DNA of 17,262 nucleotides, taken from a virus (taxonomy: Duplodnaviria > Heunggongvirae > Uroviricota > Caudoviricetes). The notes under the pieces were generated by a model. It had not been told where the DNA came from. It searched no databases and was given only the letters and a program-made list of their open reading frames with translations. A program made the position numbers and the translations under genes. Numbering within the stretch: position 1 is the stretch's first letter; every line of letters begins with the position of its first letter. Positions 12,708-17,051 of this stretch are shown here, one piece after another. Location of the stretch: the IMG/VR virus record IMGVR_UViG_2531839193_000017; one strand, given 5' to 3'.

Positions 12708-12716
12708 CGCTTGCAG
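12708..12716. repeat. 9-bp IS1 target-site copy CGCTTGCAG (partner is inverted at 17043-17051)
   Basis: Directly abuts the right terminus of IS1 copy 2; its reverse complement CTGCAAGCG abuts IS1 copy 3 at 17043-17051. Confidence 0.8.
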
Positions 12717-12769
12717 TAACGGCGAAAGGGGCAATGACAGCGCTGCCATGTCGACAAGAACTGGAATAG
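12708..12769 (+). pseudogene. cscK: fructokinase CscK, 3'-terminal fragment (last ~20 codons) separated from the rest of the gene
   Basis: Reads (A)LAVTAKGAMTALPCRQELE then stop, continuing the frame of the cscK body that ends ...RCGALA at 17043 on the opposite strand. Confidence 0.75.
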
Positions 12770-12840
12770 TGAGAAGTAAACGGCGAAGTCGCTCTTATCT
12801 CTAAATAGGACGTGAATTTTTTAACGACAGGTAGGTAATT

Positions 12841-14086
12841 ATGGCACTGAATATTCCATTCAGAAATGCGTACTATCGTTTTGCATCCAGTTACTCATTT
12901 CTCTTTTTATTTCCTGGTCGCTGTGGTGGTCGTTATACGCTATTTGGCTGAAAGGACATCTAGGGTTGACAGGGACGGAATTAGGTACACTTTATTCGGT
13001 CAACCAGTTTACCAGCATTCTATTTATGATGTTCTACGGCATCGTTCAGGATAAACTCGGTCTGAAGAAACCGCTCATCTGGTGTATGAGTTTCATCCTG
13101 GTCTTGACCGGACCGTTTATGATTTACGTTTATGAACCGTTACTGCAAAGCAATTTTTCTGTAGGTCTAATTCTGGGAGCGCTCTTTTTTGGCCTGGGGT
13201 ATCTGGCGGGATGCGGTTTGCTTGACAGCTTCACCGAAAAAATGGCGCGAAATTTTCATTTCGAATATGGAACAGCGCGCGCCTGGGGATCTTTTGGCTA
13301 TGCTATTGGCGCGTTCTTTGCCGGCATATTTTTTAGTATCAGTCCCCATATCAACTTCTGGTTGGTCTCGCTATTTGGCGCTGTATTTATGATGATCAAC
13401 ATGTGTTTTAAAGATAAGGATCACCAGTGCGTAGCGGCGGATGCGGGAGGGGTAAAAAAGAGGATTTTATCGCAGTTTTCAAGGATCGAAACTTCTGGGT
13501 TTTCGTCATATTTATTGTGGGGACGTGGTCTTTCTATAACATTTTTGATCAACAACTTTTTCCTGTCTTTTATGCAGGTTTATTCGAATCACACGATGTA
13601 GGAACGCGCCTGTATGGTTATCTCAACTCATTCCAGGTGGTACTCGAAGCGCTATGCATGGCGATTATTCCTTTCTTTGTGAATCGGGTAGGGCCAAAAA
13701 ATGCATTACTTATCGGTGTTGTGATTATGGCGTTGCGTATCCTTTCCTGCGCGCTGTTCGTTAACCCCTGGATTATTTCATTAGTGAAGCTGTTACATGC
13801 CATTGAGGTTCCACTTTGTGTCATATCCGTCTTCAAATACAGCGTGGCAAATTTTGATAAGCGCCTGTCGTCGACGATCTTTCTGATTGGTTTTCAAATT
13901 GCCAGTTCGCTTGGGATTGTGCTGCTTTCAACGCCGACTGGGATACTCTTTGACCACACAGGCTACCAGACAGTTTTCTTCGCAATTTCGGGTATTGTCT
14001 GCCTAATGTTGCTATTTGGCATTTTCTTCCTGAGTAAAAAACGCGAGCAAATAGTTATGGAAACGCCTGTACCTTCAGCAATATAG
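12841..14086 (+). pseudogene. cscB: sucrose:H+ symporter CscB (MFS permease) with two -1 frameshifts
   Basis: ATG at 12841 follows an AGGTAGG SD. The CscB sequence (MALNIPFRNAYYRFASSYSFLF... to ...KKREQIVMETPVPSAI) is spread over three frames, changing at the T-run 12904-12908 and the A-run 13454-13459. Restoring one base at each site gives a single 415-aa ORF. Confidence 0.8.
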
Positions 14087-14526
14087 ACGTAAACTTTTCC
14101 GGTTGTTGTCGATATCTCCCTATCCCTCAACCGGAAAATAATAATACTAAAGTGCTTAGCCCGGCTAATAATCACCTAATCCAAACGCCTCATTCATGTT
14201 CTGGTACAGTCGCTCAAATGTACTTCAGATGCGCGGTTCGCTGATTTCCAGGACATTGTCGTCATTCAGCGACCTGTCCCGTGTATCACGGTCCTGCGAA
14301 TTCATCAAGGAATGCATTGCGGAGTGAAGTATCGAGTCACGCCATATTTCGCTATCAGGATTCTGTGTGATGGTTACATCGCCCGGCCCAGGGCTGTTTA
14401 GTCATCAGCGCTTTCTGACAGTGCTGAGATTTCAACCTGTTGCAGTAAAAATGAGTAGATATAAGGCAAGTGTGCTGCCAAACCCATCTTTTACGGGGTG
14501 AAGGTAGATTTCGTTTGAAGGGTATC

Positions 14527-14541
14527 TGGTGTCCCCTGCAG
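14527..14541 (-). other. prophage attachment core: 15-nt copy of a tRNA 3' end (argW-like, ...CTGCAGGGGACACCA), attR-type
   Basis: The reverse complement of 14527-14541 is CTGCAGGGGACACCA, which I recall as the acceptor 3' strand plus CCA of tRNA-Arg(CCU). No T-arm is upstream, so it is an att repeat and not a tRNA gene. Confidence 0.55.
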
Positions 14542-14614
14542 ACATCTACTTGAGGCGGCAGGGGATTGATTGGAATGCTGTTTTTTAGATTTGAAAAATA
14601 TTTTACCCGCTATT

Positions 14615-14815
14615 TTACCCATTGGCGCGGCTTAAGAGCTTATTTTTGAATTCACAATGGTCACGATATAACCATCTTGCTCGTCCGTGGATAACTTTGG
14701 CTTTAGGCAGGTCGCCGGACTTAATCCGGTCATAGATGAAGGTCTTACCGAAGCCAGTATCAGCCATGATGAATTTCAAATCAACCAGTGAATCAGGTTG
14801 TAGTTCGTGTTGCAT
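14615..14815 (-). CDS. torI: TorI-like excisionase/recombination directionality factor (KplE1/CPS-53 prophage type)
   Basis: 66-aa ORF MQHELQPDSLVDLKFIMADTGFGKTFIYDRIKSGDLPKAKVIHGRARWLYRDHCEFKNKLLSRANG, matching TorI as I recall it; lies next to the att core. Confidence 0.75.
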   Translation of the reverse strand: MQHELQPDSLVDLKFIMADTGFGKTFIYDRIKSGDLPKAKVIHGRARWLYRDHCEFKNKLLSRANG

Positions 14816-14937
14816 GAGTGCTATCTCCGAATATGGAATCGAACCTGCAAATCAGGCAATAAAAAGCCGCATTGATGCAGCAATGGTAGGTCTGGATATC
14901 TTGAGAAATGAACAGGCCTCATCGAGTGTGAGGCGGG

Positions 14938-15282: not shown

Positions 15283-15523
15283 TTCTTGTCTCCATAAAAC
15301 AAAACTCGCCGTAGCGAGCTCAGATAAAAGAAATCCCCGTCAGTGCGAGGATGCTGTTCATTGCTGCTATACACTTTTTTGCTCTCAACGTAAGCGGTAG
15401 CCCATTCTGTTGGGTTGGTCAGTTGCTTTTAGGAAATGCTCTTTACCCCTTAAACGTCGGCTGAAAGAGCTAAAATCCATGCAAAAAATTTACGCAATTT
15501 TGTGTATTATTGTGCAGTAAGTA

Positions 15524-16126
15524 ATGAGCTATTTTCTGTGCAAAAAATGGATGATAAATTTGTCCGGGGCAGGAAAAATTTTATGGGCGCTAAACATGAA
15601 AAAAGATTCGTATCCTTATTTGATTTGCATGACAGTTTCAGGGCTGATCTTTATTTTCCTTTTCTTCTGGTGGCGGGCAGATATCTACAGGGTCACGTTT
15701 CTTAATCAGAGTATATCCCACTATTACATTCTGTTTAGCATGGGAATAGCTTTTCTGTTATCTCTGTTTTGGGTTAAGAAGGGGATAGTAAAACAAAGCG
15801 GCTGGAAGAGTCTGTCAGCATACCTTAAGGTTTATGCAGGGATATGCATATTTTCTGGATTTTTTCTGATTATACCCCTTACAACACTAACTTATTTTTT
15901 GCCTGGAGAGACATCGTCTTATGTTGCACCGTATCGGTATACTTCCGGTAGTTCAAAAAGTTGTTCTGGAGCTGAGGTGGATGACCCCGATCTACATGAG
16001 AATATTCGCATTTGCTATCCGTATGGCAATTATGAGTACGATAATATTATCTATGTTGAAAAGAAAATTAATACATTAGGTGCGGTAGTGACATATGCAC
16101 AGACCGCGCGTGATGATACTGAATGA
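15524..16126 (+). CDS. hypothetical membrane protein with Cys-containing C-terminal domain; start uncertain (alternative ATG at 15596)
   Basis: AT-rich ORF with hydrophobic helices (YLICMTVSGLIFIFLFFWW, YYILFSMGIAFLLSLFWV, VYAGICIFSGFFLIIPLTTLTYFL) followed by a hydrophilic domain of about 70 aa (…SSKSCSGAEVDDPDLHENIRICYPYGNYEYDNIIY…). Divergent from the 114-aa ORF. Confidence 0.4.
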   Translation: MSYFLCKKWMINLSGAGKILWALNMKKDSYPYLICMTVSGLIFIFLFFWWRADIYRVTFLNQSISHYYILFSMGIAFLLSLFWVKKGIVKQSGWKSLSAYLKVYAGICIFSGFFLIIPLTTLTYFLPGETSSYVAPYRYTSGSSKSCSGAEVDDPDLHENIRICYPYGNYEYDNIIYVEKKINTLGAVVTYAQTARDDTE

Positions 16127-16160
16127 GATAGTATATAGCGGGCAAGTTTTAGTTAATTTA

Positions 16161-16184
16161 TCGAGGTAATATAATTTACCTCGA
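16161..16184 (+). terminator. possible terminator hairpin after the membrane-protein gene
   Basis: TCGAGGTAA-TATAAT-TTACCTCGA forms a perfect 9-bp stem, followed by a U-containing but imperfect tract (CTCGTTTATTC). Confidence 0.3.
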
Positions 16185-16289
16185 CTCGTTTATTCTGGTA
16201 TGAATATTTCGCTTTACGATCGATTTTTATCTGATGATATCATGCGGTTTTCATATACTGACTTACTGTCTTTTGGTAATGACTCCAAC

Positions 16290-16793
16290 TTATTGATAGT
16301 GTTTTATGTTCAGATAATGCCCGATGACTTTGTCATGCAGCTCCACCGATTTTGAGAACGACAGCGACTTCCGTCCCAGCCGTGCCAGGTGCTGCCTCAG
16401 ATTCAGGTTATGCCGCTCAATTCGCTGCGTATATCGCTTGCTGATTACGTGCAGCTTTCCCTTCAGGCGGGATTCATACAGCGGCCAGCCATCCGTCATC
16501 CATATCACCACGTCAAAGGGTGACAGCAGGCTCATAAGACGCCCCAGCGTCGCCATAGTGCGTTCACCGAATACGTGCGCAACAACCGTCTTCCGGAGAC
16601 TGTCATACGCGTAAAACAGCCAGCGCTGGCGCGATTTAGCCCCGACATAGCCCCACTGTTCGTCCATTTCCGCGCAGACGATGACGTCACTGCCCGGCTG
16701 TATGCGCGAGGTTACCGACTGCGGCCTGAGTTTTTTAAGTGACGTAAAATCGTGTTGAGGCCAACGCCCATAATGCGTGCAGTTGCCCGGCAT
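16290..16793 (-). CDS. insB: IS1 InsB reading frame (copy 3)
   Basis: 167-aa ORF identical to the copy 1 InsB. Confidence 0.85.
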
Positions 16794-16987
16794 CCAACGC
16801 CATTCATGGCCATATCAATGATTTTCTGGTGCGTACCGGGTTGAGAAGCGGTGTAAGTGAACTGCAGTTGCCATGTTTTACGGCAGTGAGAGCAGAGATA
16901 GCGCTGATGTCCGGCAGTGCTTTTGCCGTTACGCACCACCCCGTCAGTAGCTGAACAGGAGGGACAGCTGATAGAAACAGAAGCCAC
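16712..16987 (-). CDS. insA: IS1 InsA (copy 3)
   Basis: 91-aa canonical InsA. Confidence 0.9.
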
Positions 16988-17042
16988 TGGAGCACCTCAA
17001 AAACACCATCATACACTAAATCAGTAAGTTGGCAGCATCACC

Positions 17043-17051
17043 CTGCAAGCG
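17043..17051. repeat. 9-bp IS1 target-site copy CTGCAAGCG (inverted partner of 12708-12716)
   Basis: Abuts the IRL end of IS1 copy 3 and is the reverse complement of the 9 bp at 12708-12716. Confidence 0.8.

Follow-up and report, generated by a model that had tools for sequence, protein, structure and literature searches.

Shigella chromosomes are rich in IS1, and the adjacent deletions and inversion-insertions that IS1 promotes by classical replicative transposition are the closest counterpart of the locus described here: an inverted IS1 pair bounds the flipped segment, a 9-bp duplication in inverted orientation lies at the IRR end of one copy and the IRL end of the other, and an IS1 terminus marks the exact end of a deletion. 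We found no mechanistic difference from these rearrangements; at the present locus an IS21-like element later inserted into one arm. Portions of the Shigella literature also describe IS-bounded inversions by homologous recombination (PMC8072062, PMC1550401). Here, as there, identical inverted IS copies lie at both breakpoints in a Shigella background, and genes have been lost. The inversions in those studies reportedly involve mostly large chromosomal segments, whereas the one found here spans only 3.6 kb inside a single operon-prophage junction.

According to Stephens et al. (2024; PMC11251922), IS1, IS3 or IS4 elements usually interrupt cscK and cscB in Shigella, and cscA and cscR often remain intact. 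The present locus matches that pattern, with IS hits in cscK and with cscA and cscR intact in most matching genomes. IS disruption of Shigella csc loci is already published, and this case is an ordinary example of well-known IS-driven genome decay. The running text of PMC11251922, as distinct from its figures, does not contain the word "inversion"; what is spelled out here beyond that text is the inverted duplication and the linked prophage deletion. An intact cscRAKB operon beside a lambdoid prophage is found in E. coli CEA224S (NZ_CP166080.1; locus L001), in DNA 99.4% identical to the window (the whole stretch of 17,262 nucleotides analyzed here, IMG/VR record IMGVR_UViG_2531839193_000017), and the order dsdA-dsdX'-cscR-cscA-cscK-cscB-torI-prophage is common to that locus and the matching one. 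The CEA224S locus is collinear and free of IS elements, whereas the window has an inverted segment, a split cscK and a prophage that lacks ∼9 kb.

A 3.6-kb inversion splits cscK

With the CEA224S locus as the blastn reference, window positions 12708-16274 aligned to L001 6001-9569 on the plus strand and 17043-17262 to L001 6009-5790 on the minus strand, the two pieces sharing exactly 9 reference bases on opposite strands. On the CEA224S chromosome, where the order is lysis-porin-Q-nin-P-O-cI-N-exo-TraR-hyp200-torI-cscB-cscK-cscA, positions 1826-7812 and 17043-17262 align in the same orientation as each other, with 12708-16274 reversed. On one reference chromosome, then, this 3567-bp segment alone is flipped relative to both flanks, as the first-pass annotation of this DNA had proposed. 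The breakpoints 12708, 16274 and 17043 are the first bases outside oppositely oriented IS1 copies, and the reference alignment stops there. The comparison with an intact csc locus and the in silico re-inversion suggested in that annotation rejoined cscK to cscB without a break, in one HSP of 3780 bp at 99.44% that has no mismatch at the joint. In 19 E. coli genomes, cscK and the counterpart of 12708-16274 are contiguous. We concluded that the IS1-bounded inversion splitting cscK is real.

Direct reading and translation also bore out the earlier description of the two gene parts. The body of cscK, of which the window holds only the last 220 bp, reads on the minus strand as ...RCGALA into IS1 at 17043, and the tail, translated from the plus strand, is L A V T A K G A M T A L P C R Q E L E, with its stop ending at 12769. 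When rejoined, the parts are in frame and give a 90-aa C-terminus identical to that of reference E. coli CscK. The assignment as cscK draws on this identity, on a PfkB domain (Pfam, 4.6e-18), and on the neighbors cscB (in the window) and cscA-cscR (in matching chromosomal loci). Beyond the window, cscK carries two further IS insertions, an IS4 with a 12-bp direct duplication and an IS3-family element with a 3-bp direct duplication, so that among the three insertions in this gene the inverted duplication is limited to IS1.

Table 1. Features of the window that bear on the rearranged csc locus
Feature	Position	Strand	Remarks
IS1 copy 1	4330-5097		Reference for comparison with copy 3 (copy 3 is 100% complementary)
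IS1 copy 2, left part (IS1 positions 1-231, IRL end)	9806-10036	+	Identical to copies 1 and 3; IS1 match stops after ...attgatat
IS21-like element inside IS1 copy 2	10037-12166	+	istA 10138-11310, istB 11307-12107; 4-bp duplication atat
IS1 copy 2, right part (IS1 positions 228-768, IRR end)	12167-12707	+	541 nt, 100% complementary to 16275-16815
Inverted segment (cscK tail, cscB, torI, two hypothetical prophage genes)	12708-16274	.	Opposite strand to both flanks
9-bp IS1 target duplication, IRR-side copy	12708-12716	+	L001 6001-6009
cscK 3' end, last 19 codons and stop	12708-12769	+	Translation identical to CscK C-terminus; aligns to L001 cscK (5148-6062)
cscB	12841-14086	+	Two 1-bp homopolymer deletions, frameshifted
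torI, prophage excisionase-like gene	14615-14815	-	Named from the annotation of the matching reference
200-aa hypothetical prophage gene	15524-16126	+	Last gene before IS1 copy 3
IS1 copy 3, complete	16275-17042	-	768 nt; insA 16712-16987, insB' 16290-16793
9-bp IS1 target duplication, IRL-side copy	17043-17051	-	Inverted relative to 12708-12716; L001 6009-6001
cscK body, codons ∼215-288	17043-17262	-	Runs off window; 99.1% to L001 5790-6009; PfkB domain

IS1 copies, target duplication and outer flanks

The 9-mer CGCTTGCAG (12708-12716) directly abuts the IRR end of IS1 copy 2, whose terminus ...ggagtcattacc at 12707 is followed by cgcttgcag, and the exact reverse complement of the 9-mer, ctgcaagcg (17043-17051), lies directly next to IS1 copy 3 at the IRL end; the reverse complementarity of the two flanks, claimed in the first-pass annotation, was confirmed by this reading. 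The 9-mer occurs only twice in the whole window, at the two junctions, against 0.20 occurrences expected by chance. The duplication copies are in inverted orientation, one within the flipped segment and the other outside it, which is the mark of an IS-mediated inversion. The observed junctions are IRR+CGCTTGCAGTAACGG and the sequence across 16274/16275; an un-inverted arrangement would give IRR+AAAAGACAGTAAGTC and CCGTTACTGCAAGCG+GGTAATGACTCC.

IS1 copy 3 has the length, termini and insA/insB' domains of IS1 (Pfam: Zn_ribbon_InsA, 1.3e-21; HTH_Tnp_IS1, 4.7e-31; DDE_Tnp_IS1, 5.9e-78), and its 9-bp duplication falls in the 8-10 bp range. The termini, read directly, are imperfect inverted repeats of ∼23 bp, GGTGATGCTGCCAACTTACTGAT / GGTAATGACTCCAACTTATTGAT, which we take to be the canonical IS1 ends. 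Copy 1 is flanked by an 8-bp direct duplication, i.e., it is a simple insertion. Copy 2 had been described earlier as one arm of the inversion; it does adjoin the cscK tail, but it is not intact, being split by the 2130-bp IS21-like element that was then overlooked. Plasmids of S. sonnei and E. coli carry annotated IS21-like elements that are 100% identical to this one over its full 2130 bp; the element in the window has the Pfam domains rve/Mu-transpos_C_2 and IstB_IS21, and its ends are tgtcag.../...ttgaca.

The outer flanks of the IS1 pair, taccacttc (9797-9805) and ctgtctttt (16266-16274), are unrelated in either orientation, and the second, inverted duplication by which reciprocal flanks would mark an IS-mediated inversion is absent from them because ∼9 kb of prophage has been lost there. 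The missing DNA comprises prophage early genes (P to TraR), and the gap ends exactly at the IS1 ends. The unmatched flanks do not contradict the inversion, and they show that at least one further event occurred. The prophage segment 5098-9805 has its best matches in prophages of other E. coli at a different attachment site (icd); since lambdoid mosaicism limits that comparison, the csc-adjacent prophage of CEA224S was used for orientation instead. The nested IS21-like element, the outer flanks lacking a duplication together with the prophage deletion, and the two extra IS insertions in cscK had escaped the first-pass annotation.

Conservation and competing explanations

The window matches 18 chromosome-sized contigs at ≥99.8% identity, including CP000038.1 (Shigella sonnei Ss046) and HE616528.1, and all 18 are collinear with it across both junctions, in one orientation, the Ss046 and 53G references among them. 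The arrangement is common to every Shigella sonnei genome examined. In public assemblies, no other-orientation context was found for the junction ORF that runs from the cscK body into IS1, the same arrangement being present at 10 of the 10 places listed. A search of 5426 complete E. coli genomes for an un-inverted intermediate found the junction of IS1 with the cscK tail in none of them; the sole apparent match, in isolate 602 (H28), proved to be a different IS1 insertion, between cscK and cscB.

Mis-joining of contigs at identical IS1 repeats might be suspected, given that the repeats on either side of the segment are 100% identical over 541-768 bp, beyond short-read span, and that the homopolymer indels in cscB of the window resemble sequencing errors. 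The same arrangement in all 18 contigs, which come from separate assemblies, argues that it is not an assembly artefact, and it is coherent, with the duplication on the correct IS1 ends; we consider the probability of an artefact negligible, and collapse of IS1 repeats, named earlier as a possible refutation, fails. IS1-based composite transposons consist of a segment flanked by two inverted IS1 copies, and two such copies do flank the 3.6-kb segment. Insertion as a unit would, however, leave a direct duplication outside both arms, whereas the 9-mers here are inverted, one inside and one outside; the cargo starts with the piece that the interrupted gene, cscK, lacks, and the outer flanks taccacttc and ctgcaagcg do not match, so movement as a unit is hardly credible. 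A reversible IS1-bounded switch of cscB expression could in principle operate through the inverted repeats, and most matching genomes retain intact ORFs for cscB, cscA and cscR. Against such a switch, only one orientation is seen, a back-flip would still leave IS1, the IS3-family element and IS4 in cscK, the segment holds no recombinase gene among its ORFs or in the annotation, and a scan upstream of cscB as now oriented found no promoter-like consensus match, which is weak negative evidence only; we judge it very improbable. We rejected both the composite transposon and the programmed switch because of where the duplication lies and because all contigs share a single orientation.

The explanation that very probably holds, with high confidence on our part, is that IS1 joined cscK with a 9-bp duplication, that the adjoining segment was inverted between opposed IS1 copies, and that a separate deletion removed prophage DNA. 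In the order of events that we infer, an ancestor of S. sonnei would have carried the csc sucrose locus beside a lambdoid prophage, as some present E. coli do. An IS1 end would have joined cscK at CGCTTGCAG, producing the usual 9-bp duplication, and the 3567 bp between this site and a second, opposed IS1 in the prophage would have been inverted, leaving the last 19 codons of cscK and the whole of cscB pointing away from the remaining cscK and its promoter. A separate IS1-associated deletion would have taken away ∼9 kb of prophage early genes (P to TraR) where the opposite ends of these two IS1 copies lie.

As to the route, we mildly favor replicative transposition within one molecule, by which the IS1 resident in the prophage would have moved into cscK and a single event would have produced the inversion together with its inverted duplication and the extra IS1 copy; we lean this way because the outer flanks share no duplication and border a deletion that ends exactly at IS1 ends. 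By our own tally, insertion, replicative inversion and replicative adjacent deletion make three events, versus five for a history of recombination only, an argument that is a parsimony preference only. The competing route, which we regard as a serious possibility at somewhat under even chances, has two steps: IS1 would first have entered cscK by simple insertion, leaving a 9-bp direct duplication, and RecA-dependent homologous recombination with the opposed prophage IS1 would later have inverted the segment. This route predicts exactly the final structure observed. Most Shigella IS1 copies are simple insertions, as is copy 1 in the same window, which makes an independent insertion in cscK plausible; the gene also took two other simple IS insertions and thus tolerated them. 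Recombination inversions bounded by IS are described for Shigella in parts of the literature (e.g., PMC8072062). The two-step route nevertheless needs one event more than the one-step route, and easy recombination might give both orientations among strains, whereas 18 of 18 contigs have one. Moreover, its intermediate (an un-inverted segment, with IS1 in cscK between direct repeats of the target site) was not found among genomes matching the window's own proteins or among complete E. coli genomes. The replicative and recombination routes have identical products and are inseparable, and the first-pass annotation was right to leave the choice between them undecided; all IS1 sequence in the window is identical, so that neither crossover point nor donor is identifiable.

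State of the sucrose locus and its annotation

In S. sonnei the sucrose locus has cscK hit by three IS elements, cscB cut from the operon promoter by the 3.6-kb IS1-bounded inversion, and ∼9 kb of the neighboring prophage lost. In the window the cscB ORFs are also broken, by alignment gaps of T6 to T5 and GGGGTAA to GGGGTA at about 12906-12910 and 13457-13458; cscB is intact (415 aa) in 13 of the 18 matching chromosome-sized contigs. There is a very slim chance that S. sonnei still inverts the IS1-bounded segment with cscB at low frequency, or that read-through from the IS1/IS21 arm drives expression of cscB; either could contribute to the reported rare or late sucrose-positive variants.

The locus has little significance beyond annotation; it is one more worked example of IS-driven reductive evolution in Shigella and raises no new question. 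For annotators, the 62-bp cscK tail upstream of cscB is part of a pseudogene that extends across IS1. The IS1-bounded structure also explains why short-read assemblies contain a 3.5-kb orphan contig with cscB: short-read contigs of 3540-3551 bp correspond exactly to the inter-IS1 segment.

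The two parts of cscK and their 9-bp repeats

We examined the proposal of the first-pass annotation that an IS1-mediated inversion of 12708-16274 has split cscK. On the minus strand, the cscK body reads in frame into IS1 copy 3 (...DLAQRCGALA), and on the plus strand the tail of the gene follows IS1 copy 2 (LAVTAKGAMTALPCRQELE, with the stop ending at 12769). Direct reading placed cgcttgcag (12708-12716) against the IRR end of copy 2 and ctgcaagcg (17043-17051) against the IRL end of copy 3. The two are exact reverse complements, as had been noted, and the 9-mer occurs only these two times in the whole window, both at IS1 ends (0.20 expected by chance). 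When the reverse complement of 17052-17262 was joined to 12708-12769, one copy of the 9-mer being dropped, the two cscK parts met in frame in a 90-aa open frame that carries a PfkB domain (Pfam) and is identical to the CscK C-terminus of E. coli CEA224S. Against the intact csc locus of that strain (NZ_CP166080.1; L001), window 12708-16274 aligned to 6001-9569 on the plus strand and window 17043-17262 to 6009-5790 on the minus strand, so that the two cscK pieces have exactly nine reference bases in common; this overlap is the signature of an IS1 target duplication. Re-inversion in silico restored a contiguous cscK-cscB, giving a single HSP of 3780 bp (99.44%) in which the joint is free of mismatches.

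In CEA224S the array from the prophage to emrY is continuous: it starts with the prophage lysis genes, porin, quuD, rusA and nin genes, passes through P, O, cII, cro, cI and N and then gam, bet, exo and TraR, and ends with a 200-aa hypothetical gene, torI, cscB, cscK, cscA, cscR, dsdX', dsdA and emrY. Window 1826-7812 (rrrD, essD, porin, Q, rusA) and the cscK body at 17043-17262 lie in the same orientation on that chromosome, and 12708-16274 lies in the opposite one; thus the flip is confined to the 3567 bp that the IS1 copies enclose. We concluded that the observation was confirmed and that its interpretation as a local inversion is supported.

IS elements and matching genomes

There are three IS1 copies in the window. 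Copy 1, which lies between essD and the porin gene of the prophage as a simple insertion, has no part in the inversion. The IS21-like element nested in copy 2 at IS1 position 231/232 matches annotated IS21-like elements from plasmids of S. sonnei and E. coli at 100% identity, and its istA and istB frames have the expected domains (Pfam). Its insertion there leaves copy 2 without a transposase of its own; both ends of copy 2 are intact despite the interruption.

IS elements in the window and in cscK of matching chromosomal loci
Element	Position	Strand	Duplication (direct for IS2, IS1 copy 1, IS4 and IS3-family)	Remarks
IS2, partial	1-259			same orientation as IS2 at 2522-3851; window starts inside
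IS2, complete, ~1330 bp	2522-3851		ttaac (5 bp)	disrupts prophage lysozyme gene rrrD
IS1 copy 1, complete	4330-5097	+	ccaatttt (8 bp)	
IS1 copy 2, two pieces	9806-10036 + 12167-12707			interrupted by IS21-like element
IS21-like, complete, 2130 bp	10037-12166		atat (4 bp)	istA + istB
IS1 copy 3, complete	16275-17042	-		100% complementary to copy 1
IS4 in cscK	after first codons (matching loci)		12 bp	
IS3-family in cscK	matching loci		3 bp	
IS3-family and IS4 in cscK	11810-13060 and 13629-15056 of matching locus L009			same region in L010 (Ss046)

Look-up with the 200-aa protein and the cscK::IS1 junction ORF retrieved 18 chromosome-sized contigs, including CP000038.1 and HE616528.1, which we take to be Shigella sonnei Ss046 and 53G. 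All 18 were collinear with the window across both junctions at an identity of at least 99.8%, which rules out an assembly artefact. Two short contigs (3540 and 3551 bp) consisted of the inter-IS1 segment alone, and in most index blocks listing the 200-aa protein the longest contig was 2-5 kb, as is expected from an IS1-bounded segment in short-read assemblies. The inverted arrangement is common to every matching genome read. The IS1/cscK junction was found in none of the 5426 complete E. coli genomes searched. Two matching loci differ within the flipped stretch: an apparent duplication of ~68 bp is seen near 8959 in L003 (matching window 14433-14500), and L007 has an extra IS3-family element (8719-9875) just upstream of the 200-aa gene.

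Origin of the inversion and the prophage gap

In Shapiro-type intramolecular replicative transposition into a nearby target, each IS copy keeps one donor flank and the DNA between the copies is inverted, so that the 9-bp duplication comes to lie in inverted orientation, at the IRR of one IS copy and at the IRL of its partner; the structure of the window is exactly what this predicts. IS1 would thus have transposed replicatively into cscK as a nearby target, inverting the intervening DNA, a route to which we give somewhat better than an even chance. An identical product would come from a simple IS1 insertion and later homologous recombination with an inverted IS1 copy, a route that we hold to be a real possibility if short of even, and since all IS1 sequence in the window is identical the two routes are inseparable on it.

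The lean towards replicative transposition comes from the outer flanks, overlooked in the first-pass annotation. The other ends of the IS1 pair have no duplication (taccacttc at 9797-9805 versus ctgtctttt at 16266-16274). In the reference, the left flank runs on into replication gene P and the right flank towards TraR; by coordinate arithmetic ~9.3 kb separate these points in CEA224S. The window lacks this stretch, which belongs to the prophage early region (in the E. coli reference: P, O, immunity, N, gam-bet-exo, TraR). Once the segment is turned back, the prophage is collinear with the reference except for this gap, which ends exactly at the IS1 termini, so the IS1 pair records at least three events: insertion, inversion and a putative deletion. 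Adjacent deletion is the sister outcome of the replicative reaction, and the same IS1 pair borders the putative deletion; a transposition-driven history takes three events, a recombination-only one five. The preference for replicative transposition is a lean on parsimony only.

State of the csc locus

Deletions and inversions promoted by IS1 are classical and IS disruption of csc has already been published, and the inversion is therefore an ordinary, well-documented case of a known process. Inversions bounded by IS elements, and pseudogenes created by them, are a recognised hallmark of Shigella. According to Stephens et al. (2024; PMC11251922), Shigella csc loci are defective: IS1, IS3 or IS4 usually disrupts cscK and cscB, and more than 99% of S. 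sonnei genomes have cscA. The text of their paper, figure aside, makes no mention of an inversion.

Past the right edge of the window, the matching chromosomal loci have two more insertions in cscK, and Ss046 also lacks ~160 bp of the gene beside the IS3-family element. Most matching genomes keep cscA and cscR intact, and 13 of the 18 chromosome-sized contigs have cscB as an open frame of 415 aa. In the window, cscB (12841-14086) has two 1-bp homopolymer deletions, T6 to T5 and GGGGTAA to GGGGTA, at ~12906-12910 and ~13457-13458. All 20 of the matching loci that were compared lack these frameshifts, which may be peculiar to the strain or due to sequencing errors. Between the IS arm and cscB there is no match to the sigma-70 consensus, and we infer that cscB is severed from the cscK promoter. 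E. coli isolate 602 (NZ_OW968111.1; L013) has an independent IS1 in the cscK-cscB intergenic region (4219-4916 of the locus) in an otherwise intact csc locus, which shows that the csc operon is an IS1 target outside Shigella as well.
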